The position numbers and the translations under genes are program-made. DNA of 64,000 nucleotides from an uncultured Rhodospirillaceae bacterium (GTDB lineage: Bacteria; Pseudomonadota; Alphaproteobacteria; Rhodospirillales; UBA2165): contig CAZMHI010000011.1 of the NCBI GenBank assembly GCA_964566055.1, positions 25,851 to 89,850 of the forward strand, written 5' to 3'. Below the pieces are notes generated by a model. It did no database searches. It saw only the letters and a list, made by a program, of their open reading frames with translations, and was not told the origin of the DNA. Below are positions 31,038 through 56,963 of the stretch, one piece after another (positions within the stretch are counted from its first letter, which is position 1; each line of letters starts with the position of its first letter).

Positions 31038-31634
31038 TTACGGGGTGATGTATCGCTTGATGTCGGCGACGATATCTTTGGCGGTAATGCCGTGGGGGAA
31101 CAGGCTAAGGCCGCCGCCATTGGGTCCTATGAGCACAGTCGCCGCCGAATGATCGATAAGATATTCACCGGGCTCAGCATCTTGCGATACCGACCTACGG
31201 GACTGCATACGATATATTTTTGCCGCCGAAGCGACTTGTTGCTTGGTCCCGGTTAGGCCAATCAGCCGGGGATGAAAGTGTTTTACATACCTAGCCATGA
31301 CTTTGACCGTATCCCGCTTAGGATCAACGGTTACAAAAAGCGGCTGAATTTTGTCACCATCTTTGCCCAACATATCCACTGCCTCACTGACAATCTGCAA
31401 ATCAATTGGGCAGACGTCCGGACAATGGGTATAGCCGAAATAAACCAGCATATATTTGCCGAGAAAATCCCGGTCGGTCACAGTTTTGCCGGTGTGGGTG
31501 ACCAGCTCGAACGGGCCCCGATTACTGGCAAGCGAGGCGGTTTCTTTATTCTTTAATTTCGGCCCATGGGCGTCGGCATTGGTGCCGATAAAAAAGGCCG
31601 AGACCAAAAGTAGGAGGGCCGCCAGCTGTCTCAT
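31038..31634 (-). CDS. SCO1/SenC copper chaperone/thiol-disulfide oxidoreductase
   Basis: 198 aa with a signal/anchor and the CPDVCP motif in YFGYTHCPDVCP. The ATG overlaps the upstream stop (TAATG). Confidence 0.85.
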   Translation of the reverse strand: MRQLAALLLLVSAFFIGTNADAHGPKLKNKETASLASNRGPFELVTHTGKTVTDRDFLGKYMLVYFGYTHCPDVCPIDLQIVSEAVDMLGKDGDKIQPLFVTVDPKRDTVKVMARYVKHFHPRLIGLTGTKQQVASAAKIYRMQSRRSVSQDAEPGEYLIDHSAATVLIGPNGGGLSLFPHGITAKDIVADIKRYITP

Positions 31635-33031
31635 TACATCACCATTTCCTGGCGTTGATCTAACTCCGTCTCAAGGCGACCGTCAAGATAACGCCAAACG
31701 CCATCAGCTGTTTTGGCGGCCTGATCGACACAGACGGCGACTGACGGACCGCTGATGTAATTGCCGGTCAAAAATAGTCCTGGTACGCGATTATTTGCTT
31801 CCAACATTGTTTGAACCCGGTCATTGTGACCGATTTTGTATTGTGGTAATCCGCGGGGCCAATGGCGGACGCGGGTAACTACCGGCTCACCCGTTGCACC
31901 CACGAGATCTTTAAATTCAGCCCGCGCGATAGCCGTTAATTCATCAGCCGGCAATAGAGCAATTTCAGGGGCGCGGGCACCGCCAAAATAACCCGCCATT
32001 GAAACACAGTCTTCAGGTGCCCGGCCCGGGAACATGGTTGAATGAAACTGTGAGCCTGACATAGATAGTTTTTCACTTTCGGGCGCTAAGAACCCAAGTC
32101 CATCCAGTGGATGCTCGACATCTTTTCTTTTGTAGCCGAGATAAACCACAGCCAAAGGCGGTGCCTCGATCTCACTGGCGGCAAATGATGACCTGACATC
32201 AATATCTTCCAGTAAATCAGCGGCAACATGGGGTTGCGTTGCGACGACAATAGAGCGCGTTGAGATTTTGCCTTTATCTCCAGCATCGATACTGAAGCCT
32301 TGCGAGGATTTTGTAATACGTCTGACCGTAACACCTGTTTTGACACGATTACCAAGTGCCGCCGCCAGCGACTTTGGCAAAGAGCCAATGCCGTCTTTAA
32401 ATGAAAACAGCCGGCTTGAGGGCATGTTTTTAGCGCCTTGGCGGTGATGCTGAACCAAGCCTAAGGCAATCGAGCCATATTTTTGCTCTAACCCATGGAG
32501 TTTCGGAAAGCCCGCCTCAACCGACAATTCCCCTGCCCGGCCCGCATAAATTCCAGCAACCAGAGGATCGATAACTTTTTCAGCAAACTCTTTACCAAAG
32601 CGGCGGCCGGCAAATTCAGCAATGGTTTCTTCCGTCTCTTTCCGATTGCGGGGAATGGCGAATTCCGTCATCAGACGGAGGCGGCCTTTGAGGCTGAGAT
32701 AGTTCGAAAGCAAGAAACCAAGCGGGTGAACCGGGATGCCCTGCAGCGAACCTTTACCGACAAGATAACGGCTTTTAACTCCTTCACCGAGATCACACTT
32801 ATCCTCGCCAAGCTCGAGACGCCGCGTAATATCATTGGCGGCAATCGATTGAGCGTTAACAGTGCTCGGTCCATGCTCCATCAGGAATCCACCAATGCGT
32901 TCTGAGATTGCATTACCTCCGGCATGGACTTGACGTTCCAGCACCACAACATCCAAACCCCGCCCGGCAAGCTCATAAGCCGTGGCTAGGCCGGAAATAC
33001 CGCCGCCGATGATGGCTACATCATGCGTCAT
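31634..33031 (-). CDS. HemY-type protoporphyrinogen/coproporphyrinogen oxidase-like FAD oxidoreductase
   Basis: Starts at MTHDVAIIGGGISGLATAYEL (ATG 33031; the track ORF extends to 33154). GGNA...GFLMEHGPS and C-terminal FLTGNY..G.SV.. patterns resemble HemY. Confidence 0.6.
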   Translation of the reverse strand: MTHDVAIIGGGISGLATAYELAGRGLDVVVLERQVHAGGNAISERIGGFLMEHGPSTVNAQSIAANDITRRLELGEDKCDLGEGVKSRYLVGKGSLQGIPVHPLGFLLSNYLSLKGRLRLMTEFAIPRNRKETEETIAEFAGRRFGKEFAEKVIDPLVAGIYAGRAGELSVEAGFPKLHGLEQKYGSIALGLVQHHRQGAKNMPSSRLFSFKDGIGSLPKSLAAALGNRVKTGVTVRRITKSSQGFSIDAGDKGKISTRSIVVATQPHVAADLLEDIDVRSSFAASEIEAPPLAVVYLGYKRKDVEHPLDGLGFLAPESEKLSMSGSQFHSTMFPGRAPEDCVSMAGYFGGARAPEIALLPADELTAIARAEFKDLVGATGEPVVTRVRHWPRGLPQYKIGHNDRVQTMLEANNRVPGLFLTGNYISGPSVAVCVDQAAKTADGVWRYLDGRLETELDQRQEMVM

Positions 33032-34346
33032 CGCGTGCCGCCTCTTTGTTGGCCGTGAAATCAGGCTTGAACGGCATCGCGCCACCGAACTTTTTAGCCG
33101 CCAGGAAATGCAGATCATCAGCGGTGACTTGGCTGCGGCCTTCGCCCCGAACATAGTCTTCGGCCCGCCGGCGGATCATACGGCGCAAAAAGCCTGGAAT
33201 TCTGGTCAGCCGGGCTTCGGCGTCACCGGTCCACATCAGCGCCGATTGTTGTTCAGGCAAGGGCTGGATAACGGCTCCACCCACGGGCTCATAGCCGCAA
33301 AGGAAGTCTTCGCCCATCAAATTATCATCCCGTGCCAAAGGACGGGCGCGGCAACCGCCACACAGTTTGCTGTATTCGCACTCTCCACAGCGGCCTTCAA
33401 GTACAGGCTGGCGCAGCGCTTTAAACATCGGCGCATCCTGCCAAATCTCGGTAAATTTCCGATCGCGGATGGAGCCGACACTATCCTCGATATAGGGGCA
33501 GGCCGTGACCTCGCCTTCCGGTGTCACCCGGCAATAGCGGGAACCGGCAAGACAGCCGCCGGCTTCATAACCTTGCGCCAACGTAATCGGCCATTCGGGA
33601 TCAAGCTCCATCGCCATGCGTTTAAAGTGCGGTGCACATTTAGCCCGGATCAATAATTCAGGTTCGTCATGAGCCGCTTGAGTTACTTTACGCAAAACCT
33701 CTTCGTAAGTTTCTTGCGAGATATTGGTGACTTTTTCACCGCGTCCGGTACAGACCAAAAAGAATATGTTGAGCACCAAAGCACCTGAGGACCGAGCAAA
33801 AGCAATCATCTCATCCAGTTCTCCGGCATTGTCATCGGTGACCGAAAAATGCAGCTGGTGCGCGAGACCACCCTTACGGCAGGCATCAATACCGGCCATG
33901 GTTTTTTCCCAGGCTCCCAGAAATCCACGGAAATTGTCGTGATAAACAGGATCAAGCGAATCGAGGCTGATACCGACCCCGGCAACCCCGGCTTCTTTTA
34001 GCCGAGCCACGCGCTCTTCTGTCAGCATCATGCCGTTGGTGCCGATCACCGTCATCAGGCCGAGATTAACAGCGTGCTCGGCCAACTCGTCCAAATCTGG
34101 GCGGACCAGCGGCTCTCCACCGGTCAGCACAACCATGGTTTCGCCGCCGAGTGCATTGATCTCATCCAGACAGGCTTTAACTTCATCGGTGGTGAGTTCA
34201 CCCGCCTCGCCGGCCTGCCGGATACCGGCATCAAGATAACAATGGGCGCAGGCTTGATTACAGCGCCGCGTTAAGTTAAGCGCGACCAGAAACGGCTGCT
34301 CTGCCTTAACGTCTTTCACATTATCTTTGGTGCGGAGCAGGTTCAC
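33021..34346 (-). CDS. Radical SAM/SPASM protein (NirJ/AhbD-like) with a C-terminal PCP_red-like domain
   Basis: CNQACAHC radical-SAM cluster motif, GGEPL, and a SPASM Cys cluster (CGECEYSKLCGGCRARP). The tail WTGDAEARLTRIPGFLRRMIRRRAEDYV is PCP_red-like. Likely GTG start at 34346 with a GAGG SD; the track ORF runs to 34424. Confidence 0.8.
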   Translation of the reverse strand: MNLLRTKDNVKDVKAEQPFLVALNLTRRCNQACAHCYLDAGIRQAGEAGELTTDEVKACLDEINALGGETMVVLTGGEPLVRPDLDELAEHAVNLGLMTVIGTNGMMLTEERVARLKEAGVAGVGISLDSLDPVYHDNFRGFLGAWEKTMAGIDACRKGGLAHQLHFSVTDDNAGELDEMIAFARSSGALVLNIFFLVCTGRGEKVTNISQETYEEVLRKVTQAAHDEPELLIRAKCAPHFKRMAMELDPEWPITLAQGYEAGGCLAGSRYCRVTPEGEVTACPYIEDSVGSIRDRKFTEIWQDAPMFKALRQPVLEGRCGECEYSKLCGGCRARPLARDDNLMGEDFLCGYEPVGGAVIQPLPEQQSALMWTGDAEARLTRIPGFLRRMIRRRAEDYVRGEGRSQVTADDLHFLAAKKFGGAMPFKPDFTANKEAARDDA

Positions 34347-34356
34347 GGACGTCGCC

Positions 34357-36510
34357 TCAGTCTTTCTTATAGAGGTCTGGATTGCTGTCGGAGTGGAAAT
34401 CACCCATGCCTTCCCAGGCTTCACTGGCCATATCGACAGCTGCCGTGGTGACCCGGTCTAATTCCAGTTCACGGGCGCAGCGTTCGATCTCAAGCTCAAC
34501 CATGCCGCGGACAAAATCCGGAATGCGCTGGACGCGTTCGAGGGCGTCCTCATCCCAGTCCATCTTGCGTTTTTGCTTGGCGGAACCTTTGGCCCATTCG
34601 GCATATTTTTCTTCGACCAGGGCTTCAGTGATGGTTTCTATCTCGTGCTTTTCGGCATAGACCTCGACCCGCTGGCGGGTCATATCACGCATAAAGCCTG
34701 CCGGGATTTTAGCCATCCGCGCTTCAGCATCTTCGGCCCAGACCAAAGCTGGCTTATCTTCGGTTTCATCTTTGGCTTTAGATTTCGTCGCAAAAGGGCA
34801 AACAAAGCCTTGTTTTTCTTCAGCTTCTTCCGGCTCGTCATCTTTCGTCGCAATAGCCTCATTCATGGCAGCGCGCGCTTTTTCAAGCCCGGCTTCAACC
34901 ACTTCGAGGGTCACTTCCGTGGTGCCGCGTTCTTGCGCCACGCCTTCAATCCGGGTCCGCGTGGCGTCCCGCATGGCATCCGGCACTCGGGATAATCTCG
35001 CCAAAGCGGCGGCAGCCCAGACAAATTCACCTTCAACACCGGCTTCGACATTGACGTTGGTATCGATAAACGGCAGCACATGCTCATCCAGCACTTCTTT
35101 GGAGGAATTCCGGCGCGCTCGTTTTTCAGCCCGCAGCTTAATGTTAGCCGCCATCGGCAATTCGACATGGCGCTTGATCAATTCATTGGCAGAGTCGGAC
35201 CAGGTAACCGTTTGCTCTTTCTCAAGCTGTTCCTCTGACCGTCCGCCGCCCGGCATCATCTCATTGGCGACAATTTCAACGATGTCCTGAGTAATAAACG
35301 TGTGACCCTTTTCCTGGGCATAGCGGTTAACCGCTTTTCTGGCCATATCCTGAACAAAGCTCGGAGCGCGTTTCAAGAACTCTTCCGCTTCATTGCTCCA
35401 GGAAATGGTTTCTTCGGCCACGACTTCCATCGGCGGCACATGTTCTGTTTGACCGAGCCAGATGTGACAGGGTGACATGCGCAAAAGGTTTTCCGCATTA
35501 CCGCCAATATCGAGGCTGCGATCCGCATGCACACCGGTCATGCCGACCATTAACAGGCTGGCGTTTACTTCTTCCAGATAATCACAGATGACTTTGAAGG
35601 CTTTGCCTTCAAGCAGTTTGCTGACAACTTCGAAGCCTTCCTCATCGGCAATCTTATTAGCGATTTCGAGGTTGGATTGATAAATTTTAGCGATACCATC
35701 ATCGATCAGCTCTTCATGCAGGGCTTCTTGCTCGCGGAAGCGGAAGACCTTGCCGGCTTCATCACTGAGCACGCTGGCGATTTTATTAAAGGCTACATAG
35801 TGGTAATAGGGATCGTAGGACGAGACGATATGCACTTCCGCCTCAATTCGCCGGGCGATTTCAAAAGCTCGTTTTAAGACACCATATGATTTTGCCGAGC
35901 CATCAATCGCCACAACGATGGGGCCATCACCAATCTCTTTTTGAGTATCGCGGATGACCAGACAATCAATGGGGCTGCGCCGGACCACACGCTCACAAAC
36001 GGTGCCGATCAAACTGCCGGGCACTGCGCCCAGGCCAAGCGAGCCCAAAGCCAATACATCATGGTCACCGGTCTCAGCTGCTTCAATAATTTTAGTGTAG
36101 TTTTTACCTTCTGGGCTCAAGCGCTGAAACTTGAGGCCGCGCGCATCGCATTCGGCTTTGGCGACATCGTGATAGCTATCGGTAATGATCGAGAGCCCGT
36201 CGGTGATCAGATCGTCATGCACATCCCGCTGATACTGCATTTCCTCTTCATCGAGATAACGATCCGGCAGACCGCCTTCCATTTGGCGAAAGCGCGCATC
36301 GTGCAAACGGGCTGCATAAGCGTGAATACCGGTAATCTGGCCGTCCGCCGAGGGAACGAGTTTCAATATTTGAGCAAGTGCGTGATCAGCATATTCCGAG
36401 GCGTCAAGCGCCACTAAGAACCGTGAGAAAGTTTCTTGATTTTCCCCTGTAGATTCTGGCGTGGATACAGGGCTGGCGTCGGCCTGTTTGGCCGCTTGTG
36501 TCACATTCAT
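34357..36510 (-). CDS. Tandem universal-stress-protein domains fused to five PCP_red-like repeats
   Basis: 717 aa. Two USP modules (aa ~28-190 and ~195-345), then five copies of the pattern W..(D/E)A...L.R(I/V/A)P.F(V/M)(R/Q)...... spanning aa 369-700. Confidence 0.7.
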   Translation of the reverse strand: MNVTQAAKQADASPVSTPESTGENQETFSRFLVALDASEYADHALAQILKLVPSADGQITGIHAYAARLHDARFRQMEGGLPDRYLDEEEMQYQRDVHDDLITDGLSIITDSYHDVAKAECDARGLKFQRLSPEGKNYTKIIEAAETGDHDVLALGSLGLGAVPGSLIGTVCERVVRRSPIDCLVIRDTQKEIGDGPIVVAIDGSAKSYGVLKRAFEIARRIEAEVHIVSSYDPYYHYVAFNKIASVLSDEAGKVFRFREQEALHEELIDDGIAKIYQSNLEIANKIADEEGFEVVSKLLEGKAFKVICDYLEEVNASLLMVGMTGVHADRSLDIGGNAENLLRMSPCHIWLGQTEHVPPMEVVAEETISWSNEAEEFLKRAPSFVQDMARKAVNRYAQEKGHTFITQDIVEIVANEMMPGGGRSEEQLEKEQTVTWSDSANELIKRHVELPMAANIKLRAEKRARRNSSKEVLDEHVLPFIDTNVNVEAGVEGEFVWAAAALARLSRVPDAMRDATRTRIEGVAQERGTTEVTLEVVEAGLEKARAAMNEAIATKDDEPEEAEEKQGFVCPFATKSKAKDETEDKPALVWAEDAEARMAKIPAGFMRDMTRQRVEVYAEKHEIETITEALVEEKYAEWAKGSAKQKRKMDWDEDALERVQRIPDFVRGMVELEIERCARELELDRVTTAAVDMASEAWEGMGDFHSDSNPDLYKKD
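34411..35406 (-). repeat. Five tandem PCP_red-like (protochlorophyllide reductase B C-terminal-like) domain repeats at protein level
   Basis: ISWSNEAEEFLKRAPSFVQDMARK / VTWSDSANELIKRHVELPMAANIK / FVWAAAALARLSRVPDAMRDATR / LVWAEDAEARMAKIPAGFMRDMTR / MDWDEDALERVQRIPDFVRGMVE. Confidence 0.6.
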
Positions 36511-36564: not shown

Positions 36565-36578
36565 TTGATGTGGATCAA
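36565..36578 (-). promoter_or_regulatory. Perfect FNR/CRP-family box TTGAT-GTGG-ATCAA
   Basis: Read directly. Box centre is 61 nt upstream of the ATG at 36510, with a TAATTT hexamer 32 bp downstream of the centre (class II geometry). Confidence 0.6.
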
Positions 36579-36826
36579 ACCTGCAAATTAGAGCTATTCT
36601 GATCTTTGCTGATTTTGGGCCGGTTATTGGACCGAATTTGGCCGATGACCAGAAAGAACAGTCCTGTGGCAATTAAAAAAATGTAGAAATTGTCGATCGC
36701 GTTGCCGGCCCGCCAGGACAGCATGGCATCCAAAGCACCGACAAAGATTAGCGCCACGCCAAACATCCGCGGAATAACACCACGCCTTGGGGTAACTTCC
36801 TGTTCCGTGTTTGACGCTGCCTGCAT
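36575..36826 (-). CDS. Small two-TM membrane protein
   Basis: 83 aa. Two hydrophobic helices (MFGVALIFVGALDAML, FYIFLIATGLFFLVIG). Starts 3 nt after the upstream stop. Confidence 0.5.
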   Translation of the reverse strand: MQAASNTEQEVTPRRGVIPRMFGVALIFVGALDAMLSWRAGNAIDNFYIFLIATGLFFLVIGQIRSNNRPKISKDQNSSNLQV

Positions 36827-36829
36827 TTT

Positions 36830-38353
36830 CTAGCCCTCCCGCTTGGCCGCCGCGTTGCGCGCCCACCAGCCTAAAAGGCCGAGAAGCAGAAGTGCAACAA
36901 TCACGCCGGAAATAATCGGCTTGGTGCTGGTTGGCGGCTTGAGCAACAGCCAGTACCAGGTGGTCAGAGTGTAGCTCCGCGCTTTTTCAGAGTTGCTGCC
37001 ATCCCAGGCGGCAAAAGCGATGGGCGTGAAACGGCCTTCTTCAAATTGAATATCGCTGCCGGTTTCAGCCGTCTTAAGTGCACGCTTAACCACGACCCGC
37101 CAGGAGCCGTTTTTGTAAACGCCTTTTGCCGTCAGGCCGGCTGCTTTGCCATCGCGGGCCTCAAGATTTTCAAGCCCCTGGCCATCGGCGAGTTCAACTT
37201 TAGCCGGCGACTTGGTTGTACCGGCGCTCCATTTCCAGATATTGACCGGCTTGGCGCCGTCACCGGCAACAAAATAGGGTTTCTCTAGACCTTCCGGTGC
37301 TATGACCGGCAACTGAACAGCAACCGCATCTTCAGTCATATTTTCATCAGCGATTTTGGCCGCGGCTTCGTCACCCGGAATACTTTTGGTGCGGTCATCC
37401 CATTCGAGCAAAAAGGCGACTTCTTTGTCGCTATAAAGCGCCTGAGCTGTAATGGTGTCATTGGCCATTTTAAAGAAACGCGGCTTGAGAATGATTTGCG
37501 GCACCATGGCAAAGGTCGTTGGTTGCGCGACCTCCCAAGCTTTGTCATCGGGTCCTGTCGGCAAATCACCTTCTACTTTTTCGGCAATCACCACAGTATT
37601 TTCAGCGCGCACGGTACGTTTTGTTTTGGCCAAAGACTGCACATAGTTGGCAACATGCCAGCGTTCTTCGATCGAAAGTTTTTTGGCGCTTTTCTCATCG
37701 GCAAATGTCGGCATTTGTGTGCCGGGAATACCGACGGTCACACGGGCAAAGATGTCTTTTGGATCATTACTGCCTCTGAAAGTCCAAGGCTTGGTCAGAT
37801 TGCGCGGCCAGGTGCGCGCACCTGCATCGTCTTTTAAGCGCTTAACTGCATCACCTTTACCGTCCTCACCATGGCACTCGGAACAACGCTCCTTGTCATG
37901 GAATAGCTTTTTACCTTGAGCGATACTTTCCGGCGAGGTGGCAACTTGGGTGCCATAATCCAATTGTTCTTCCGGCTTTTCGTCTTCAAGCTCAGCAAAC
38001 ATTTTGAGATAGAGCACGAGGTCCCACATTTCCTGCTCTTTGAGGATATCGGCCCAGCCCGGCATGGCAGTGCCCGGCATACCATCTTTAATCATGCGGT
38101 AGATATCATCATCATTCGGTACCGGATCTTCTTCACCGGTGGTTTTGATCTTATAACCGGCTTCGGTGAAATCACGCGGTGGCGGGTTGAGACGCTCGGC
38201 GCCAGGGCCGTCACCATCACCTTCTTCGCCGTGACACATCAGACAGCGTTTTTCATAAATTTTCTTACCGTTCTCGGCATTACCCGGGGCGGCAATTACT
38301 GGTGAGCCCAGCAATATGGTCAGAAGCGCAGTTAAGGAAATTAACAATTTCAT
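36830..38353 (-). CDS. Di-haem cytochrome c fused to an EB_dh/DOMON-like domain and a C-terminal TM anchor (module 1)
   Basis: Signal peptide. CLMCH and CSECH. C-terminal half has EB_dh-like motifs (DAVAVQLP, VNIWKW, NGSWRVVVKRAL, FAAWDGSN). Terminal TM helix IISGVIVALLLLGLLGWW. Confidence 0.75.
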   Translation of the reverse strand: MKLLISLTALLTILLGSPVIAAPGNAENGKKIYEKRCLMCHGEEGDGDGPGAERLNPPPRDFTEAGYKIKTTGEEDPVPNDDDIYRMIKDGMPGTAMPGWADILKEQEMWDLVLYLKMFAELEDEKPEEQLDYGTQVATSPESIAQGKKLFHDKERCSECHGEDGKGDAVKRLKDDAGARTWPRNLTKPWTFRGSNDPKDIFARVTVGIPGTQMPTFADEKSAKKLSIEERWHVANYVQSLAKTKRTVRAENTVVIAEKVEGDLPTGPDDKAWEVAQPTTFAMVPQIILKPRFFKMANDTITAQALYSDKEVAFLLEWDDRTKSIPGDEAAAKIADENMTEDAVAVQLPVIAPEGLEKPYFVAGDGAKPVNIWKWSAGTTKSPAKVELADGQGLENLEARDGKAAGLTAKGVYKNGSWRVVVKRALKTAETGSDIQFEEGRFTPIAFAAWDGSNSEKARSYTLTTWYWLLLKPPTSTKPIISGVIVALLLLGLLGWWARNAAAKREG

Positions 38354-38365
38354 CAGTTCAGCCCC

Positions 38366-39133
38366 CTACTCGTGTCCAAAACTTCGGGGCTGATACCCGG
38401 TGTAGTCATAAAGAAATAAGATAACCTGCCAGATTTCCTCTTCGCTGAGAAAGTCCTGCCAGATCGGCATGGAAGAGATCCAAGGCGCGGCCTCTTTCGG
38501 CAGGCCCGGCCCGCCGGTAGCAATACGCCAGAACAGGTAAGATTCCTGGAGCTGTGCGATGGTGCCGACATCCTGGAAATTGGCCGGTGTCGGATTGAGC
38601 CCAGCCGCATAAGGGCCTTTGCCATCGAGCTTGTCACCGTGACAGAAATGACAGTTCTGGATATAGACCTTGGCGCCCTCGGCGACGTGTTCTTTGAATT
38701 TTTTGGGGTCTTCTTTCTCCAGCTTTCGCAGAGGATTCTCAAGCTTGATGACATCGTAGCGTTTACCATAGGCCTTCATCGAGGTTGGCGGCGCTGGATG
38801 AATGGTGCGGAGCTCAACCGGTGCTTCAAAGCTTAAGCTGGTTTTCTCGTACGTGTACCAGCCCGCCAAGACAGGCAGGATGATGAACACGACGTTGCGG
38901 ATCATCTTTTTATTGGGGTCTTCGACCAAGGCTTTGATCGGCCCGACAAGTTCGCGGGTACTTTCTTCGGTCGCGGTGAACACCATAAAGACGCCGGCCA
39001 CCACAAAGAACATATACATCGTCAGCAGGCTCGACGGGATAACGTGGTCAAGCATAACATCGAAGACCAGGACGAAGCCGTAATAGACAATGGCCAGAAC
39101 GAGAACGGCTTGAAGTAACTTAGGTATTTTCAT
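38366..39133 (-). CDS. Three-TM-anchored mono-haem cytochrome c (module 1)
   Basis: 255 aa with a strong SD (GGGAGGGG). Three N-terminal TM helices, then CHFCHGDKLDGKGP in a class I cytochrome c domain. Confidence 0.75.
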   Translation of the reverse strand: MKIPKLLQAVLVLAIVYYGFVLVFDVMLDHVIPSSLLTMYMFFVVAGVFMVFTATEESTRELVGPIKALVEDPNKKMIRNVVFIILPVLAGWYTYEKTSLSFEAPVELRTIHPAPPTSMKAYGKRYDVIKLENPLRKLEKEDPKKFKEHVAEGAKVYIQNCHFCHGDKLDGKGPYAAGLNPTPANFQDVGTIAQLQESYLFWRIATGGPGLPKEAAPWISSMPIWQDFLSEEEIWQVILFLYDYTGYQPRSFGHE

Positions 39134-39145
39134 CTCAGCCCCTCC

Positions 39146-39958
39146 CTATTTCAACTTGGCCAAATAATCGACCAGCATTTCAAGCTCGCTGGCATAGAGC
39201 TGAGTGCCGTAATCTTTCGGCATTAAGTCTTTTTCATAGCCTTTGGTCAGTTCTGCATTCGGATCAAGGATCGATATTCTGATATGAGCGGCGGAACGAA
39301 GTGCGCCGATTTTTGTCAGATCAGGTCCTTGCTCGCCTTCATCTTCACCGACTTTGTGACAAGCGCCGCAGCCGACCTCTGAAAGGATATCTTCAACGCT
39401 TTCATACGGTTTGCGTTGCTCCTCTTCCTCGTCATCCGCAGCATCACCGGCGTCTTCCGGAATTTCGACCGTAACCTCGACACCACCCAATTGTTGGAGG
39501 TAAGCGGTAACAGCGGCAAGCTCGACTTCGTTGAGACCGATACTGCCGGTTGAAGCATCCGGCATCGGGCTGACCGCATCATTGGTGCCTTTTTTACCGA
39601 AGCCAGCGACCACAAAAGCCGACGGTTTGACCATCGATTCCATGACGTAGCTTTCAACATCTGTTGCTTCGCCCTTATAGCGTGGGTCTTTGAGACGCGC
39701 TGCGGTGACGGCCGCTGTTTTTTCAAGCAATGGGGCACGGCCGCCAAGCGCATTGTGGCAGAGCGTACAGGTGCCCTTGCCTTTATATAATTTTTCACCG
39801 AGCGCCAGGAATTGATCCATGGTCAAAGAGCTGAGATCGACTTTCTCCTCGGTCGGCGGTGGCGCGGGCTCGATCCGGGGAATACCGAAATTAGCAAATC
39901 CGGCAAATAGGCCAACGACCAGCACGCTAAAGAAAGCGACTTTCAGGAAATTTTTCAT
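39146..39958 (-). CDS. Membrane-anchored di-haem cytochrome c (module 1)
   Basis: 270 aa with an N-terminal anchor and CTLCH and CGACH motifs. ATGA overlap with the upstream CydA-like gene. Confidence 0.75.
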   Translation of the reverse strand: MKNFLKVAFFSVLVVGLFAGFANFGIPRIEPAPPPTEEKVDLSSLTMDQFLALGEKLYKGKGTCTLCHNALGGRAPLLEKTAAVTAARLKDPRYKGEATDVESYVMESMVKPSAFVVAGFGKKGTNDAVSPMPDASTGSIGLNEVELAAVTAYLQQLGGVEVTVEIPEDAGDAADDEEEEQRKPYESVEDILSEVGCGACHKVGEDEGEQGPDLTKIGALRSAAHIRISILDPNAELTKGYEKDLMPKDYGTQLYASELEMLVDYLAKLK

Positions 39959-41850
39959 CCCTTACCTCCTGCCGCGGCGATATTGTCGACCGCTTCAGGC
40001 GCCCAGTAATTCTGAGGCTCGGTTTTCTTGGCGCTGATCTGGCTGAGCCAGAAAACAAAGATCACCATGGAGAGGAAAATAATCGTGCCGATGGAAACCA
40101 CATTGGCGGCAAAGCCCATGGTCGGCGTGAAGGCATCGGCGGAATTATCCCGCATGATATCGACGACATGCCAGTGTTGGCGGATACCGGAGCGGATATA
40201 CCCCATCAAACCCATCAGCCAGGTGAAGGAGACAGCCAGCAGGAACAGCGCATATTGCGAACGTTCGGGTACACGGCCCCATTTCAGCGGCGCCACTTCC
40301 TTGGCATTTTTATACATAAAGCTGTCGATGAGAATACTGATGACAATTATCACCAGGGTCGTACAAACTTGCGGGATTGAAGCGGCGATCTTATAGACCG
40401 TATTGGTGAAGTAGCCGTAATAGGTACCAAGAATGAAAATATTAATGACGCCGGTGACAAATAGCGCCACTTGCGCGGCATTACCGGCATTGACCCAGCT
40501 TACCGTCGCAACTTTATTGGCGCGCCGGTAGAACAGAAAGCTGACAAAGGTCGCGAGGATCATTAAATTCACAGCCGTGTTCTTGGCCGGCATAATACCA
40601 AAGGGTCCAAGATATTTGTGATAGGGCCCGCCAAGCGCTTTCAGCTCTTCGTTGGTCAACACCAGGGTATGCGGTGTGAACCAGACCAAGAAGGCACCGA
40701 CAATCACAATGGCGATATATTTAATATATTTGTAATAGCGCACCGCGCCATCGCTCCGGCCCATGCAGCACCAGAGATAATAGTTTGCTGACAGGAACAG
40801 TGCGCCGATCAGCACGGCCTGAATGATAAATAGCCAGGCGAAAATACCACCCATCAAAGTGATGCCCATTTGCTGGCTGAAAGCATAAATTTCTGTGGTC
40901 AGGTAATAGCCGGCAAAGGGTAGAGGCAGCAGCGCCGAAATAGCGATAAAGTTGGCGGTATAGCCCATCCAATCGTAATGCGCGCGGTCTTCGGCTCGGC
41001 TTGAGCTTAAGAACTTGAAAGCTGCATAGGCGCCGACGATGGAGCCGCCAAAGGCCACATTGGCCACCACCCGATGCAAATTGATCGGGTTCCAGAGATG
41101 GTTCTGAATGGCCGGCCAGATATCACCGGCAAAGACACCTGCCGCATCGACGCCTTCCGGGCTCATCATGAATGTCAGCCAGGAATTGGCGAGCAGCATC
41201 AGCATGGTGCCGACAGCATTGAGCAACAGGCCGATCGTCAGATGGACCCATTTGCGGTCGCCACCCTGCAGCCAGTGCCAGCCATAATAATAGAGATAGA
41301 GGCAGGCGCTTTCGGCGAAGAACAGTACGGCATACCAGAACATACTGTCTTTAAAGATGGTCGCGAGGTAGCTCCAGAGATCGGGATAGAACAGCATCAG
41401 GGAGAACGACAACAAGCCGCCCAAGATAGCCGTCAGGGAATAGGCCGTAATACTGACTTTAATAAACTCATAAGCCATATTGTCGTAGCGCCGGTCGCGC
41501 GTGCGCATACCAATAGCTTCAATAATGAAAACAAAAATCGGCACAGCAAGGACAAAGGCCGCAAACCAGAGATGCAATTGGGCCACCAGCCAGATAACAA
41601 CCCGGCTGTTGACGCCTTTGACGGTCGGATAGCTGGCGAGCGTGGTTTGAGGGGCTGGACCATATGGCGAGGTGGCTTCTGTATCACTGTCAGTGTTTTC
41701 AGCTGCCGGTTCTGCCGCTTGCTCAGCAGCCTGCACCGCTACATCAAAAAATTCACCGCTAAAATTTACCGGTGACAGAAATAACATCAAAGCCAGGAAA
41801 GCTATACCGGCTATTTTAAGTCCCCACCTGTTTTCATTTTTAAACTTCAT
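39955..41850 (-). CDS. Cytochrome bd subunit I (CydA)-like polytopic membrane protein lacking a Q-loop (module 1)
   Basis: CydA-like helix 1 (AQLHLWFAAFVLAVPIFVFIIEAIG), ANSWLTFMMSPEGVD, and NLHRVVANVAFGG. There is only a short loop where canonical CydA has the Q-loop. ATG at 41850; the track TTG start is at 41868. Confidence 0.7.
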   Translation of the reverse strand: MKFKNENRWGLKIAGIAFLALMLFLSPVNFSGEFFDVAVQAAEQAAEPAAENTDSDTEATSPYGPAPQTTLASYPTVKGVNSRVVIWLVAQLHLWFAAFVLAVPIFVFIIEAIGMRTRDRRYDNMAYEFIKVSITAYSLTAILGGLLSFSLMLFYPDLWSYLATIFKDSMFWYAVLFFAESACLYLYYYGWHWLQGGDRKWVHLTIGLLLNAVGTMLMLLANSWLTFMMSPEGVDAAGVFAGDIWPAIQNHLWNPINLHRVVANVAFGGSIVGAYAAFKFLSSSRAEDRAHYDWMGYTANFIAISALLPLPFAGYYLTTEIYAFSQQMGITLMGGIFAWLFIIQAVLIGALFLSANYYLWCCMGRSDGAVRYYKYIKYIAIVIVGAFLVWFTPHTLVLTNEELKALGGPYHKYLGPFGIMPAKNTAVNLMILATFVSFLFYRRANKVATVSWVNAGNAAQVALFVTGVINIFILGTYYGYFTNTVYKIAASIPQVCTTLVIIVISILIDSFMYKNAKEVAPLKWGRVPERSQYALFLLAVSFTWLMGLMGYIRSGIRQHWHVVDIMRDNSADAFTPTMGFAANVVSIGTIIFLSMVIFVFWLSQISAKKTEPQNYWAPEAVDNIAAAGGKG

Positions 41851-41872
41851 TCTGCTACGCGCCTTCAAATCT

Positions 41873-42318: not shown

Positions 42319-42708
42319 CTAGCCTGCCTTACCTTTACACTTACACAGACCACGCAAATACTTGATCAAGCCATTGGCATCGGCGTCTGAGATCGTCTTA
42401 CCCCAGGGCGGCATCAATGGTGATTTACTTTGCGACGGGCCGCCATCCATGACGATGCCGCGGATATAATTATCTGTGAGCTTGCTCATCTCTTTAGCAT
42501 TGGTGAAATCCCGCGGTGTAACCGGGAAATCCTTGGTCACATTGGGGCCCTTGCCTTTGCCTTCGAGGCCATGACATTGGGCGCAGTAGAATCTAAAAGT
42601 TTCTTCGGCTCCCGCTGCTTTTGCAGTTTCAGTGTTAATAAACCAGGCCAAGCCAAATACGGCGGCCAGGAGAGAAATTTTGCTTAGTTTTTTCATTGCT
42701 CTAGCCAT
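42319..42708 (-). CDS. Periplasmic mono-haem cytochrome c
   Basis: 129 aa. Signal peptide and CAQCHGLEGKGKGP. Alternative ATG at 42696 with better SD spacing. Confidence 0.8.
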   Translation of the reverse strand: MARAMKKLSKISLLAAVFGLAWFINTETAKAAGAEETFRFYCAQCHGLEGKGKGPNVTKDFPVTPRDFTNAKEMSKLTDNYIRGIVMDGGPSQSKSPLMPPWGKTISDADANGLIKYLRGLCKCKGKAG

Positions 42709-42710
42709 CC

Positions 42711-43373
42711 TTATTTGAGGTTGCTGACATGTTTAGCGACGTTTTTGAGATCCTTATCCTTCAAAATACCCGCGAAGGTCGGCATCGCTTTGAACGGTTT
42801 GAAGTGAGTGGGATTTTTCAAATAGGCGTAAATCCAATCGGGGTTGAGCCGTTTGCCGACGCCAACCAAGGTTGGGCCGCTGAAGCCACCGGTAATCTTG
42901 CCTTTTTTGCTGGCCGATTGATGACAGCCGGTGCAGGGCATTTTCTTGGTGAAAATCTTTTTACCTTTAAGACTTTTCTTTGGCTTAATAACACCCGCTT
43001 TAACTTCGCCGGTGGTTTTACTCATCAGGAAGTCAGCAACATTGGCGGCATCGCCACCGGATAATTTCGGATGGTCGCCCGCGTTCTTTTTGGTCAGCGA
43101 GTTATAAGCCAAATGGCGGATCGGTTTTGGGTCCTGGAGCCAGCCCTTGAGCCAGGCTGCCTGGAACTTAGATCCTGCATACCAGAGTTCAGGGCCTTTT
43201 TTGGCCATTTGGTCGGCAATGCTTTTTTCTTTAGCCGGACCCTCGGTATAGTGGCAACCGGTACATTTTTGAGCTTCGAAGGCAGCTTTACCAGCGCCTG
43301 CGTCAGCATGTGCCGCACCAGCGACAAAGCCGAAGAGGCTCATTGCTGCAATTGCAGATATGATAATTTTCAT
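42711..43373 (-). CDS. Periplasmic di-haem cytochrome c
   Basis: 220 aa. Signal peptide and two CTGCH motifs. Confidence 0.8.
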   Translation of the reverse strand: MKIIISAIAAMSLFGFVAGAAHADAGAGKAAFEAQKCTGCHYTEGPAKEKSIADQMAKKGPELWYAGSKFQAAWLKGWLQDPKPIRHLAYNSLTKKNAGDHPKLSGGDAANVADFLMSKTTGEVKAGVIKPKKSLKGKKIFTKKMPCTGCHQSASKKGKITGGFSGPTLVGVGKRLNPDWIYAYLKNPTHFKPFKAMPTFAGILKDKDLKNVAKHVSNLK

Positions 43374-43410
43374 TTTCCTACTCCTTTTTTTTGCTGGCCA
43401 AGCGGCTTAT

Positions 43411-45075
43411 TTATGCCGGTTTAGCCTGCGCCTTTTTCATCAGCCAGAACCCTAATCCGCCTGTGATCAGGAAGGCCAAAATCGCATAGACATAAACTTC
43501 CATCGGCGTCGGCGCTTCAAGAAAGACGAAATGCCACGTCGACAAACTCATAATTTTGCCATGCTCACCGTTCGAACCATCCCAGGCATTGATCGACATG
43601 GGAATGAACTTACCGGCACTAAATTGAATATCGTTACTGTCTTCGGTAACCAGCGGACGCTTCATGACAACGCGCCAGCGGCCGTCTTTCCACTCCGAAG
43701 TGGATGTAACCTGTTGCTGATCTTTGGCTTGCGCCCGGGCTGGTTGCTGGTAGCCGCGTGCGGTTGCTTCCTCAGCACCCGATTTAGCTTTTTCCGCCAG
43801 ATCAGCTTTCCAAACCCAGAGATTAACCGCATTGGAAGAACTGCCGCGGAGGAAATGGGGCTTCTTGGTGCCGGGCTTAAACTTGGCCGGGAATTGCAAA
43901 GCCACCGAATCCCGGAAGGTTTCAAGAGCACGCGGGATCATATCATTGGCGGCAACATAAGAATTATAGGCGCCAACTTTGCTGATATCCGCAGTCTTGA
44001 ACTCCTTGTCCTTTTTGTGAGTGATGTCCTTGAAGGGATCATCCCACTCCATCAGGAAAGAGATTTCTTTGTCGTTGAAGGCCGCCTTGATAGTGACCAG
44101 TTCAATGCCCGGATTCTGCCAGCGGGGAGCCGCAACAACCTGGCCGGCCAGACGCATATCCATCGGCTCGGCTGTCTGCCAGGCCTCATCATCCGGTTTA
44201 GCGGGTACGTCACCTTCAACTTTTTTGGCTTTGAGCACTTGATGAGAGGTCGGATTATGCTGCAGTGATTTGATGAAATTAGCCAACGCCCAGCGGTCTT
44301 CATTAGAGAGCGCCTTAGCGAAGGACGGCATCGGCGTGCCGTTAATACCGGTCGAGAAGCGCATATAAATATCTTCGACGTTGCTGCCGCCTTTAATCTT
44401 CCAGGGCAGCGTGACGTTACGAATACGGATCGGGAAACCCCAATCATCTTTACGGTCAAAAGCTTTCTGGCCATTACCCCGGCCTTGCTTGCCGTGACAT
44501 TCCCAGCATTTTGCTTTGAGGAAAATTTCTTTACCCTTGGCGACAAGCTCTTCGCTATAGGGCGGCAGATTTGATGGCAGCGTGACCAGCTTATTGGTCT
44601 TAATCGGATCAAGCTCTTCGTCATCAAATTCCTGAGCGAAAGTTTTGATATATGCAATAACCTGCCAGCGCTTCTCTTCGCTCAAGCCATTTTTAATAAT
44701 ATCGCTATCAAACGCCTGCATACCGGTGCCTTGGAGGCCACGGCTGACAGTGCGGAACAGATCAGCATCGGTCGGCAGTTCACCCGACTGGGTTTTCCGG
44801 AACTTAAAGGTACCGAGGGTGAAATCGCGGGGCCGTGGATCCATATAATCGGCAGCCGGTCCGTTGCCATCGCCCAACAGGCCGTGGCACATGACGCAGC
44901 GGCGGGAGTAGATTTCCCGGCCTTTTTCAACAAAAGCTTCTGTCGCTTCCGGCATTGGCTTGGCGGCAACATCGGCTGCTGAAACCGGCGTGGCAATAGA
45001 GGCCGATAAGGTAAGCACTGCAGCAGCGAAAGTGAATTTCAAAAATGTCACTATATTTCTTAAAGTTCCTCGCAT
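43411..45075 (-). CDS. Di-haem cytochrome c fused to an EB_dh/DOMON-like domain and a C-terminal TM anchor (module 2)
   Basis: 554 aa. CVMCH and CWECH. EB_dh-like motifs (DSVALQFP, VNLWVWKA, DGRWRVVMKRPL, INAWDGSNGEHGK). C-terminal TM. Paralogue of 36830..38353. Confidence 0.75.
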   Translation of the reverse strand: MRGTLRNIVTFLKFTFAAAVLTLSASIATPVSAADVAAKPMPEATEAFVEKGREIYSRRCVMCHGLLGDGNGPAADYMDPRPRDFTLGTFKFRKTQSGELPTDADLFRTVSRGLQGTGMQAFDSDIIKNGLSEEKRWQVIAYIKTFAQEFDDEELDPIKTNKLVTLPSNLPPYSEELVAKGKEIFLKAKCWECHGKQGRGNGQKAFDRKDDWGFPIRIRNVTLPWKIKGGSNVEDIYMRFSTGINGTPMPSFAKALSNEDRWALANFIKSLQHNPTSHQVLKAKKVEGDVPAKPDDEAWQTAEPMDMRLAGQVVAAPRWQNPGIELVTIKAAFNDKEISFLMEWDDPFKDITHKKDKEFKTADISKVGAYNSYVAANDMIPRALETFRDSVALQFPAKFKPGTKKPHFLRGSSSNAVNLWVWKADLAEKAKSGAEEATARGYQQPARAQAKDQQQVTSTSEWKDGRWRVVMKRPLVTEDSNDIQFSAGKFIPMSINAWDGSNGEHGKIMSLSTWHFVFLEAPTPMEVYVYAILAFLITGGLGFWLMKKAQAKPA

Positions 45076-46040
45076 TATTCAGACTCCGGAATTCGGGGAG
45101 TCTTTTCGGCGAGGTCGTATTCCGCCAAAATAATCTTCCACCGTTCTTCATCGGTGAGGTTTTTCTTCCATTCCGGCATGGCCGAATCCCAAGGCGTTGC
45201 CTCGGTTGGCAGGCCTGGGCCGCCATTCATAACCCGCCAGAAGGTGTAACCTTCGACGATGGTTTCAATGGTGCCGTTATCGGTGAAGTTGATCGGGCGC
45301 AGTTTAAAGCCGTCAGCCATCGGGCCGTCACCGGCAACGCTGTCGCCATGGCAGGGGCGGCAGTTCATGGCGTAGAGTGTGCGGCCTTCATAGAGATCGA
45401 TTTGATGCAGCACTTCCTTGGCAGACGCTTCGGTGATTTTTTCAGCTTTTAATTCAGCCAGCAGTTTCTTAACTGATTCACCCGGCAAAAAATCTAAGGT
45501 ATGATCCGGATCAGCCTCTTCTTTCCAGGCATCGATGTCTTTCTGCACTTGCGGAATGAAGGTGATTTCATCCTCCTTAACCTGTTCGATAAAGGCCTTA
45601 ACCCGGTCTGGGGTCGGCTCGTTGTAAGGATTTTTCATGCTTTCAAATTTCTTGGGAAAATTTGATGATGGATGCTGGATGCGGAGACTCGACGGCAATT
45701 GCACTTTCGGCACGGTAATGTCATAGACCTGCCAGCCGATGACGGCCGGCACCGCGACCAGAACTGCCAAGCGAAAGGCCTTGGTGTACTCGCCCCGCAG
45801 CATTTTCCGGATCGGACCCCAGAACTCTTCCATGAATTCATCAGAAAATGTGACCAAAGCAAACAGTGCCACGCACGTTAGGGTCATATAGATAAAGACC
45901 AAGGTGCCCGGCACGGTCAGCGGAAAGGGCAACGCGGTAATACTGCGGGAAACCGCCGGGATTACCCATTTAACAATGCCGTAGAACACCAAAATAGTCG
46001 CGACGACAGACCAAAAACGATTTATTTTAAATTTACTCAT
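45075..46040 (-). CDS. Three-TM-anchored mono-haem cytochrome c (module 2)
   Basis: 321 aa. N-terminal TM helices and CRPCHGDSVAGDGP. Paralogue of 38366..39133. 1-nt stop/start overlap with the downstream gene. Confidence 0.75.
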   Translation of the reverse strand: MSKFKINRFWSVVATILVFYGIVKWVIPAVSRSITALPFPLTVPGTLVFIYMTLTCVALFALVTFSDEFMEEFWGPIRKMLRGEYTKAFRLAVLVAVPAVIGWQVYDITVPKVQLPSSLRIQHPSSNFPKKFESMKNPYNEPTPDRVKAFIEQVKEDEITFIPQVQKDIDAWKEEADPDHTLDFLPGESVKKLLAELKAEKITEASAKEVLHQIDLYEGRTLYAMNCRPCHGDSVAGDGPMADGFKLRPINFTDNGTIETIVEGYTFWRVMNGGPGLPTEATPWDSAMPEWKKNLTDEERWKIILAEYDLAEKTPRIPESE

Positions 46041-46055
46041 CTTTGTTCATCCGCC

Positions 46056-47039
46056 CTATTTTTTCTTGCCTTTTTGCATCAACATGAAGGAAAGAACATC
46101 TTGATAGTCCTTCACCGTCATTTCTTCCGATAGATCATCCGGCATGATGCTTAAAAGTTTGTCTTGAGTGATTTCCTTGATGTCGGATTTCTTAATTGAA
46201 ACTTCGTCGCCATCTTTGGTAACGAGTTCAACGGCGCCGTCTTCTTCACCCGCTTTGAGGCCGACGACTTTGCGGCCATCTTTTTTAACTACGACAAACG
46301 TCTCAAAGCCTTTTGTGATACTTTTTGCCGGCTCAAGGATGGCTTCAGAAATAAACTTGAGCCCCTTAGTTCCAACTGTTGAGAGATCAGGTCCGACATC
46401 ACCCGGCTCACCTTCAAGCGAATGACAATCGCCGCAAGTTTCTTCATAGACTTCCTTGCCATGCGCCGGATCACCACCACCAGCCGCCGAGGCGACAGCG
46501 ATTTTACCGTAAAACCCTTGCGTGATTTCGCTCGGATTGTTGATCTCAGCGATATCAAATTCACCGCCTTGCGCTTGCATATAAGCGGCTGTCGCCTTGA
46601 TCTCATCCAGGCTCAGGGAGATCGGCGGGGCATAGACCACCGCCATTTCATTTTTGTATCCTTTGACGACGTAGGCACCGGGATCACTCAGGCTTTCAAC
46701 TATGTAATCAAGCGCCGTATACTTCTTGCCGGTTTTTTCCGAGCGTTCCTTAGCACGTTCAACCGCACGGGCACCCATCGGCAGCGGGAATTTTTCACCG
46801 AACTGACCGTGATTGGGACCACGCACCGCACTGCCCCGGTCACCAACTGAGTGGCAGGTGAAGCAGCGGCCTTTGCCCCAGTAAATCGCTTCGCCGCCTT
46901 CCGGTGTAACTTCAACTGCACCGGTCGCAGCAGCTTTTTTCTCGCCGCCCGTTAATTTGGTGACGGAATGGCCGACCCAGTTAAAGACGCCGAAAACCAC
47001 CAACAAGAAGATAAATACTTTTCCAACAGCTTTTGCCAT
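46056..47039 (-). CDS. Membrane-anchored di-haem cytochrome c with a Planctomycete/Verrucomicrobia-type haem-binding C-terminal domain (module 2)
   Basis: 327 aa. Anchor, CFTCH and CGDCH. The tail ILEPAKSITKGFETF...LSIMPDDL...DVLSFML resembles the PVC-type CxxCH domain. Confidence 0.7.
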   Translation of the reverse strand: MAKAVGKVFIFLLVVFGVFNWVGHSVTKLTGGEKKAAATGAVEVTPEGGEAIYWGKGRCFTCHSVGDRGSAVRGPNHGQFGEKFPLPMGARAVERAKERSEKTGKKYTALDYIVESLSDPGAYVVKGYKNEMAVVYAPPISLSLDEIKATAAYMQAQGGEFDIAEINNPSEITQGFYGKIAVASAAGGGDPAHGKEVYEETCGDCHSLEGEPGDVGPDLSTVGTKGLKFISEAILEPAKSITKGFETFVVVKKDGRKVVGLKAGEEDGAVELVTKDGDEVSIKKSDIKEITQDKLLSIMPDDLSEEMTVKDYQDVLSFMLMQKGKKK

Positions 47040-47050
47040 AGAGTTATTCC

Positions 47051-49243: not shown

Positions 49244-49286
49244 TTACCTACTCCGCTTTACGTATTGAATTAGCCGAAACTGATTG

Positions 49287-50140: not shown

Positions 50141-50154
50141 TTGATCTAGATCAG
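50141..50154 (-). promoter_or_regulatory. Near-perfect FNR/CRP-family box TTGAT-CTAG-ATCAG
   Basis: 9/10 match to TTGAT-N4-ATCAA. Lies in the 120-nt gap upstream of the cupredoxin gene, with a TAATTT hexamer 33 bp downstream of the centre. Confidence 0.5.
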
Positions 50155-55195: not shown

Positions 55196-55207
55196 TAGTC
55201 GTCTCTC

Positions 55208-55810: not shown

Positions 55811-55834
55811 GATTTTATCCTCACTCCTAGCCCA

Positions 55835-56953: not shown

Positions 56954-56963
56954 CTCACGGCTC

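Follow-up and report, generated by a model that had tools for sequence, protein, structure and literature searches.

The 64-kb window analysed here, the whole stretch of 64,000 nucleotides from an uncultured Rhodospirillaceae bacterium, contains at the downstream end of a respiratory gene cluster four consecutive genes, which encode a Usp-Usp-4xPCP_red protein, a radical S-adenosylmethionine enzyme (rSAM) with SPASM and PCP_red domains, a HemY-family FAD oxidase, and a SCO1/SenC protein (Table 1). The genes for the Usp protein, rSAM and HemY constitute a conserved accessory cassette, found almost only in genomes that also encode a module of OR-N-type bd-like protein, cytochromes c and EB_dh domain, and usually adjoining that module. 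The cassette enzymes are a variant of known late-haem enzymes. The explanation that accounts best for these observations, although it is held tentatively and falls slightly short of even chances, is that the cassette provides, at low oxygen, a dedicated late-haem supply for a very haem-rich bd-like complex, with a chemistry that we infer below.

The association is most evident across 201 genomes sampled evenly from the order to which the host belongs. The rSAM gene is present in 20 of them and the bd-like gene in 19, both occurring together in 18 genomes and neither in 180; the three discordant genomes are fragmentary (completeness 55-77%), with the matches located at contig ends. Most rSAM/bd-like pairs lie on one contig, 7-16 kb apart. 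The connection of the gene unit with the bd-like cluster, proposed in a preliminary description of the window, is borne out by this distribution. The order Usp-rSAM-HemY is retained at 18/20 species-level alphaproteobacterial genome loci (48-92% identity), while at the other two HemY is missing only at a contig end or break. Metagenomes provided a further 80 loci from an alignment scan covering relatives of at least 61% identity, and these were counted in subsets according to the available flank (55, 56, and 68 loci, as well as 39 long loci). The Usp gene lies upstream of rSAM at all 55 loci with enough flank, HemY directly downstream of it at 66/68, and the bd-like set or its 260-residue partner immediately upstream of the cassette at 36 of the 39 long loci. 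No synteny across the compared loci was found past HemY or SCO1, and hence the unit is taken to end there. Across the order the cassette is patchy (13/91 genera), as would fit an accessory module. The closest genomes are those of marine oxygen-minimum-zone Rhodospirillaceae and further alphaproteobacterial metagenome-assembled genomes; breadth across phyla was assessed in two Nitrospira genomes. A literature search revealed no paper combining bd-like proteins, radical SAM enzymes and protoporphyrinogen oxidase and none describing the cassette: PF08369 (PCP_red) appeared in unrelated surveys only, and a preprint on the bd superfamily as well as papers on Nitrospina and N. marina make no mention of it.

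The genes are tightly packed. A gap of 10 nucleotides separates the end of the Usp gene from the rSAM start, the rSAM stop and the HemY start overlap by 11 nucleotides, and the HemY stop and the SCO1 ATG have one nucleotide in common. Independent gene predictions in public records of identical contigs agree on the rSAM, HemY, and SCO1 products (441, 465, and 198 residues). All three genes of the preliminary description, together with their motifs and overlaps, are thus present where it placed them, and its view of a single unit downstream of the Usp-PCP_red gene agrees with both the packing and the Usp-rSAM-HemY synteny. The rSAM, HemY, and SCO1 genes appear to form the 3' part of one operon, which begins with the Usp gene and is preceded by an FNR-type box. 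Two perfect boxes of this type occur in the window, against approximately 0.06 expected from base odds. Close relatives (L010, L011, L013, and L014) retain the half-sites of the cassette box in the same position, though the spacer between them varies, and a box with at most one mismatch lies upstream of Usp at 15/56 metagenome loci (about 0.4 expected). Genome-wide, 25 perfect boxes were counted against about 4 expected, while the host hemN and one COX1 locus have only FNR-like boxes with one mismatch. A classical FnrL regulon was considered for the 25 perfect boxes and rejected: by eye, the open reading frames downstream look like mixed metabolic genes, including those for IorA-like and old-yellow-enzyme-like reductases, and not ccoN or nirS. 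The regulator is therefore named only as an FNR/CRP-family member. The box suggests that the operon is switched at low oxygen.

Judged by its sequence, the rSAM enzyme appears to be of the tetrapyrrole type and to represent a PCP_red-fused clade of its own inside the AhbD/NirJ2 radiation. Pfam recognizes a Radical_SAM domain (97 bits), a SPASM domain (32 bits), and a C-terminal PCP_red domain (51 bits). The motif CNQACAHC follows the CX3CX2C pattern, and C29, C33, and C36 are invariant in 20 orthologues along with eight cysteines of the SPASM region. The highest NCBIfam scores are those for NirJ2 (TIGR04055, 304 bits) and AhbD (TIGR04545, 290 bits), followed by the uncharacterised TIGR04053 (240 bits), NirJ (176 bits), and AhbC (175 bits); the top seven models comprise all six of the AhbC/AhbD/NirJ type plus TIGR04053. 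Both the NirJ2 and AhbD scores are below the cut-off of 500 bits, and on these grounds the enzyme does not qualify as a certified AhbD. Searching 1.84 billion representative proteins with HMMER yielded 768 clusters at E < 1e-30, and a tree of 118 full-core representatives was rooted with the host NirJ. All 24 sequences with a recognised PCP_red domain fall into one 32-member clade (98% SH-aLRT), nested among AhbD/NirJ2-type sequences. One neighbour in the tree (P0154) exceeds the NirJ2 cut-off (533 versus 500 bits), while most others are sub-threshold and some score best on AhbD.

A peptide-modifying SPASM maturase (of the PqqE, mycofactocin, or sactipeptide type) was considered as well and rejected: mycofactocin, the best peptide-maturase model, reaches 143 bits compared with 304 bits for NirJ2, and its tree neighbours all belong to the AhbD/NirJ2 type. 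Within the cassette, no conserved small gene was found that could encode a precursor peptide. The first assignment of the enzyme as NirJ/AhbD-like is consistent with these scores, and the phylogenetic placement, which had been suggested as its check, separated the enzyme from peptide-modifying SPASM proteins instead of grouping it with them. As modelled by AF2 (pLDDT 73.5), the enzyme takes a generic SPASM fold of the PqqE/SkfB/anSME type, with a poorly modelled SPASM region and an uncertain position of PCP_red; Foldseek searches with this model returned generic SPASM enzymes only, the PDB containing no AhbD structure. The enzyme shares with AhbD/NirJ2 the CX3CX2C core and the full set of SPASM cysteines, and these are its best-scoring families; its expected chemistry would be the oxidative decarboxylation of a propionate to a vinyl group. 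It differs from them in the fused PCP_red domain (sometimes in two to three copies), the separate clade, and the sub-cut-off scores, as well as in its context, where AhbA/B/C or partners of the coproporphyrin-dependent (CPD) pathway are replaced by a PgoX-type HemY and the Usp-PCP_red protein.

The PCP_red domain (PF08369) corresponds to the tail of subunit B of dark-operative protochlorophyllide oxidoreductase (DPOR; BchB/ChlB), where the helical tail covers the bound protochlorophyllide. One copy of the domain is located on the rSAM enzyme and four on the Usp protein (Pfam: two Usp domains, 105 bits; four PCP_red domains, 154 bits), and the repeats of the latter match the C-termini of solved BchB/ChlB chains (2KRU, 2XDQ_B, and 9BUO_B). 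In contrast to DPOR subunit B, the cassette proteins do not have the nitrogenase-like catalytic body and the host has no chlorophyll pathway; the domain here occurs in repeats, as an independent module joined to Usp or radical-SAM domains. The Usp-Usp-4xPCP_red protein is likely to be a nucleotide-binding scaffold or a tetrapyrrole carrier.

The HemY-like oxidase has the hallmarks of a real porphyrinogen oxidase, as had been proposed. Its score for TIGR00562 is 275 bits (cut-off 97.85), and the N-terminus contains the FAD dinucleotide-binding motif IIGGGISGL. The closest solved structure is Myxococcus xanthus PgoX (PDB ID: 2IVD, 241 bits), ahead of Bacillus subtilis CgoX (PDB ID: 3I6D, 177 bits). 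Zamocky et al. 2023 (PMC10740692) give a few residues by which protoporphyrinogen-type (PgoX) and coproporphyrinogen-type (CgoX) oxidases may be distinguished: PgoX enzymes invariably have R95, F329, and L332 (M. xanthus numbering), at which positions CgoX enzymes have small residues, and CgoX enzymes invariably have F227, with R364 strongly conserved as well (B. subtilis numbering). The corresponding residues in the window protein are R88, L312, L315, L208, and A346. Typing was extended to 76 unique cassette orthologues, with a native Nitrospira HemY unlinked to the cassette as a control. The equivalent of R95 is Arg in 76/76 cassette proteins and Ala in the control, and that of L332 is Leu in 75/76 and Ile in the control. 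The position of F329 holds Leu, Ile, Val, or Met in the cassette proteins, mostly a bulky residue and never Ser or Thr, compared with Phe in the control; it is only conservatively kept, since Val (3/76) is among the residues that the cited paper gives for CgoX. The equivalent of F227 is Leu in 74/76 and Phe in the control, and that of R364 is Ala, Ser, or Thr, never Arg, and Arg in the control. The Nitrospira control thus displays the expected CgoX pattern, which validates the residue test, and the cassette HemY is most probably a protoporphyrinogen-type oxidase. It resembles M. xanthus PgoX in the TIGR00562 match, the FAD motif, the equivalents of R95 and L332, and the absence of the CgoX markers F227 and R364. 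It differs in having Leu, Ile, or Val at the F329 position, in being a second protoporphyrinogen oxidase beside the HemJ of the genome, and in its location within a respiratory cluster, translationally coupled to rSAM.

The cassette is an addition to normal haem synthesis, since a complete HemN/HemJ/HemH route is present elsewhere in the genome. The window's own genome (G000, completeness 93%) encodes a true HemN (460 bits, cut-off 325) and, in adjacent positions, hemE, hemH, and hemJ, with a single ferrochelatase. Profile searches of this genome found no HemF, no ChdC, and no second HemY; they also found no AhbC-like third paralogue and no second ferrochelatase, and no source of coprohaem is evident. 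The substrate of the cassette rSAM may for this reason differ from that of AhbD. On another contig (C50:9821-13852, L002), a true NirJ (611 bits, cut-off 515) lies beside the only AhbA/B-type sirohaem decarboxylase genes of the genome and a cytochrome c-beta-propeller fusion, which we read as cd1/NirN-like; by its gene content, this locus would be a haem d1 pathway separate from the cassette. The other cassette genomes are similar: HemN exceeds its cut-off in 14/16 and 16/18 of them (30/34), HemF is found in 4/16 and 8/18, and HemJ in 15/16. In each of five further cassette genomes, a single ferrochelatase gene adjoins hemJ and ChdC is absent. One genome (G007; estimated 100% complete, 50 contigs; cassette at C16:212861-214093) has HemJ and HemH, with neither HemN nor HemF. 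If this is real, the cassette rSAM is its only candidate for the decarboxylation step.

In the explanation preferred here, the rSAM enzyme would decarboxylate coproporphyrinogen III, forming protoporphyrinogen IX; HemY, to which it is translationally coupled, would oxidize this product to protoporphyrin IX, and the housekeeping ferrochelatase would insert iron to yield haem b. The PCP_red domains might cap the tetrapyrrole, hand it over between the Usp scaffold and the enzyme, or dock the two to each other. SCO1 would be an accessory chaperone that delivers copper in the periplasm, most plausibly to the type-1 cupredoxin of the cluster. An rSAM-then-HemY chain is favoured because it is the simplest consecutive use of both enzymes and fits the gene order and translational coupling. 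In many proteobacteria, hemN paralogues adjoin and are co-regulated with the genes of cbb3 oxidase. The cassette resembles HemN (CgdH) and these cbb3-linked paralogues in the proposed radical-SAM decarboxylation feeding a protoporphyrinogen oxidase, in its presumed FNR-type control, and in its co-location with a low-oxygen respiratory complex. It differs in that its rSAM belongs to the SPASM/AhbD class and not to the HemN class, the real HemN being encoded elsewhere in the genome; functional equivalence with HemN is presumed.

Several observations weigh against this explanation. To our knowledge, all characterised members of the AhbC/AhbD/NirJ clade use iron tetrapyrroles and none a metal-free porphyrinogen. 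The proposed chemistry duplicates the host HemN and HemJ and leaves the strict tracking of the bd-like module unexplained. HemY-type oxidases normally need O2, while the FNR-type box points to low oxygen. The genome mentioned above is the only one of approximately 34 cassette genomes without both HemN and HemF, and assembly gaps would give about as many. Further points come from Nitrospira, where two genomes contain an orthologous Usp/rSAM pair (L158 7159-11332 and L159 7630-11759). The Usp protein there has three PCP_red repeats and a rubredoxin-like insert, the rSAM-PCP_red protein is 47-48% identical to the window enzyme, and a B12-binding radical-SAM gene lies upstream. The gene that follows rSAM does not encode HemY; its product is a DUF4149/CopD-like membrane protein with four transmembrane helices. 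Its Pfam matches are to DUF4149 (25 bits) and, weakly, to CopD, but not to UPF0093. In a BLASTP comparison with the host HemJ, only 15 residues around the His of the first helix align (E = 0.03), which does not establish the protein as a HemJ analogue. Both genomes encode Chlor_dismutase-family proteins and no true HemN, and a CgoX-type HemY was found in one of them and none in the other. This background is of the coproporphyrin type, and the rSAM enzyme could act there as an ordinary AhbD. The substrate of rSAM may thus differ between hosts, and the alphaproteobacterial HemY may be whatever the host needs to complete the branch.

A related possibility is a hybrid of the coproporphyrin type, in which HemY would work as CgoX, the ferrochelatase would produce coprohaem, and rSAM would be a true AhbD that turns it into haem b. 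A branch leading from CgoX through ferrochelatase to AhbD is described in Gram-positive bacteria, and AhbD occurs in CPD organisms that have no other Ahb enzymes (Chem Rev 2026, PMC13564367), which lends the hybrid a precedent. The nearest named families of the rSAM enzyme, AhbD and NirJ2, are moreover coprohaem decarboxylases, and the CPD-type Nitrospira cassette without HemY would be in keeping with an alphaproteobacterial cassette that brings along the oxidase its host lacks. The residue typing is at odds with it: both CgoX-invariant residues are absent from the cassette HemY (74-76 of 76), whereas the Nitrospira HemY has the CgoX pattern. Each of the six cassette genomes checked has a single ferrochelatase, adjoining hemJ, and no ChdC. 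Protoporphyrin ferrochelatases use coproporphyrin poorly. With a PgoX-type oxidase, which argues against a coproporphyrin-type route, with no coproporphyrin or second ferrochelatase and no coprohaem route, this branch is disfavoured and appears quite improbable.

The supply of haem b by the rSAM-HemY chain may also be compared with a more specialised function. The bd-like protein retains equivalents of CydA His19, Glu99, and His186. Seven histidines (H99, H209, H265, H297, H400, H417, and H567 in the numbering of paralogue A) are invariant in both bd-like paralogues and 25 orthologues, and only H99 and H265 align with the haem-ligand histidines of canonical CydA. The alignment makes extra haem or metal sites possible. 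In the scheme of Murali et al., the OR-N family is without a quinol site, and we infer that the bd-like protein fits this family. The cassette might be imagined to start from haem b, or from an ordinary intermediate, and to tailor it into a modified haem that only the OR-N bd-like complexes or their EB_dh domain bind, with rSAM altering side chains after HemY or in parallel with it. Such a function would explain the strict tracking of the bd-like module by a cassette whose hosts already make haem b. It would also suit an rSAM enzyme that forms its own clade, scores below the AhbD and NirJ2 cut-offs and carries a unique PCP_red fusion, and the literature on OR-N bd-like complexes, in addition to the histidine pattern, leaves room for it by assigning no cofactors.

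This reading is nonetheless unlikely. The HemY part of the tailoring route that had been proposed is weakened by the PgoX signature, as such an oxidase works on the ordinary route to haem b, at a step that precedes metal insertion. No methyltransferase, hydroxylase, or dehydrogenase that might serve as a further tailoring enzyme is conserved in the cassette. Of the 201 genomes, 64 have canonical CydB with a score exceeding its cut-off and 20 have the cassette, with an overlap of zero. Canonical, haem d-containing bd oxidases thus never occur together with the cassette and do without it, and the cassette is not a general haem d synthase; the link with haem d that was first drawn has lost ground correspondingly. 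The canonical CydB and the bd-like/cassette systems may replace each other ecologically. It seems improbable, too, that the cassette makes or delivers a new haem species or an unusual haem loading for OR-N bd-like/EB_dh complexes, with the PCP_red-fused AhbD-like enzyme performing an undescribed side-chain reaction, or, in a milder variant, that the enzyme represents a third, AhbD-type class of coproporphyrinogen III decarboxylase, its product being channelled through the PCP_red caps to PgoX.

The SCO1 protein has a clear family assignment (PF02630, 170 bits; cut-off 22.8), the copper ligands CPDVCP and a downstream His (YLIDHS), and an N-terminal signal (MRQLAALLLLVSAFFIGTNADA). Its place in the gene set stands in part: it is present and overlaps HemY, but it is absent from 47/56 metagenome loci. 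The gene occurs in the loci of the five closest genomes (L010-L014) and at 9/56 metagenome loci, and it reappears in divergent cassette lineages (40-56% identity) at varying positions: after HemY, before Usp, or directly after rSAM. At one locus (L099), SCO1 seemingly follows rSAM directly without HemY, on a GC-rich contig that simple calling of open reading frames could not resolve. SCO1 is therefore a sporadic but recurrent add-on to the cassette and not a core member. It shares with SCO1/SenC/PrrC proteins of haem-copper oxidases the Pfam domain, the CxxxC and His ligands, and the N-terminal signal or anchor. In contrast to them, it ends a haem-type operon, in a cluster without a CuA subunit (no COX1 or COX2 genes were found in the window), and its nearest candidate client is a type-1 cupredoxin.

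That cupredoxin is the exported 260-residue protein heading the paralogous module upstream. It has no Pfam cupredoxin match. Invariant H143, C190, H193, and M196, with the amicyanin-like spacing C-x2-H-x2-M, and the predicted fold (AF2 pLDDT 83; top Foldseek matches amicyanin, pseudoazurin, and plastocyanin) nevertheless indicate a probable type-1 cupredoxin. The domain is fused to a CarboxypepD_reg-like beta-sandwich. A copper recipient of the kind that had been suggested is thus available in the cluster, and the periplasmic SCO1 plausibly serves this cupredoxin, or else an unrecognised site within the bd-like complex. SCO1 could, instead, be a paralogue belonging to a haem-copper oxidase that landed at the end of the operon and is functionally unconnected with both the cassette and the bd-like module. 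The genome encodes four SCO1 paralogues that exceed the cut-off and, on other contigs, four to five haem-copper oxidase genes, one of the paralogues adjoining COX1 (contig C6), and the absence from most cassette loci points in the same direction. The start/stop overlap with HemY, the recurrence in divergent lineages at different positions of the cassette, and the conservation of the type-1 cupredoxin in the same supercluster make such a coincidence rather unlikely, though not as far-fetched as the tailoring of a special haem. If SCO1 and the cupredoxin are linked, assembly of the module would seem to involve copper delivery as well.

Table 1. Features of the cassette and its surroundings in the 64-kb window (positions of the window)
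Feature	Coordinates	Strand	Remarks
Usp-Usp-4xPCP_red gene	34357-36510	minus	717 aa; first gene of the cassette
rSAM/SPASM gene, C-terminal PCP_red fused	33021-34346	minus	441 aa; GTG start at 34346, stop at 33021
HemY-family FAD oxidase gene	31634-33031	minus	465 aa; ATG at 33031 (MTHDVAIIGGGISGL)
SCO1/SenC gene	31038-31634	minus	198 aa; last gene of the operon, lineage-specific
Perfect FNR/CRP-family box TTGATGTGGATCAA	36565-36578		centre ~61 nt upstream of the Usp-PCP_red start codon
Module A, whole span	36575-41868	minus	upstream partner of the cassette
Module A, bd-like protein	39955-41868	minus	
Module A, two cytochromes c	39146-39958 and 38366-39133	minus	
Module A, dihaem cytochrome c fused to EB_dh haem b domain	36830-38353	minus	
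Module A, small protein with two transmembrane helices	36575-36826	minus	83 aa
Module B, paralogous to A	42319-50069	minus	bd-like protein (47051-49243), cytochromes c, EB_dh
Cupredoxin heading module B	49287-50069	minus	260 aa
HEAT-repeat protein	50190-52520	minus	776 aa
AioA/IdrA-family molybdoenzyme, Rieske small subunit, two MauG/CCP-type dihaem peroxidases	52523-58121	minus	
Second perfect FNR-type box	58388-58401		precedes the molybdoenzyme set
FNR-like box with one mismatch	50141-50154		78 nt upstream of the cupredoxin gene

The surroundings of the cassette consist mainly of the two paralogous respiratory modules, which lie upstream on the same strand and each comprise a bd-like protein of the 14-helix type, at least two cytochromes c, and a dihaem cytochrome c-EB_dh fusion, the whole being headed by the 260-residue protein and the HEAT-repeat protein. 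The small membrane protein encoded between the EB_dh cytochrome and the Usp gene is kept in most type-I loci (35-82% identity), and the stop codon of its gene shares nucleotides with the FNR-type box. The HEAT-repeat protein has weak matches to HEAT proteins of the bilin-lyase type (NblB and CpcE). Its gene lies between those of the molybdoenzyme and the cupredoxin, and the same order was found again in distant loci (L016, L024, and L028). The molybdoenzyme reaches 408 bits with TIGR02693 (cut-off 359), and with the Rieske subunit and the two peroxidases it forms an iodate-reductase-like set (idrP1P2BA-type); the enzyme is a candidate iodate reductase or arsenite oxidase.

New in this analysis are the typing of the cassette HemY as PgoX with a control, the zero overlap with CydB, the single PCP_red clade, and the statistics of the FNR-type boxes, as well as the sporadic but recurrent SCO1, the cupredoxin fold, and the HemY-less Nitrospira variant in a coproporphyrin-type host. 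The OR-N bd-like proteins occur in nitrite oxidisers, anammox bacteria, and manganese oxidisers, and here also in oxygen-minimum-zone Alphaproteobacteria. A co-travelling cassette with recognisable enzymology makes the question of their cofactors and assembly testable. If the proposed late-haem supply is true, the cassette would constitute a fourth arrangement of the terminal haem steps, in which an AhbD-clade rSAM enzyme is combined with a protoporphyrinogen oxidase in an organism of the protoporphyrin pathway, and it would provide the first non-photosynthetic role for the BchB tail domain.

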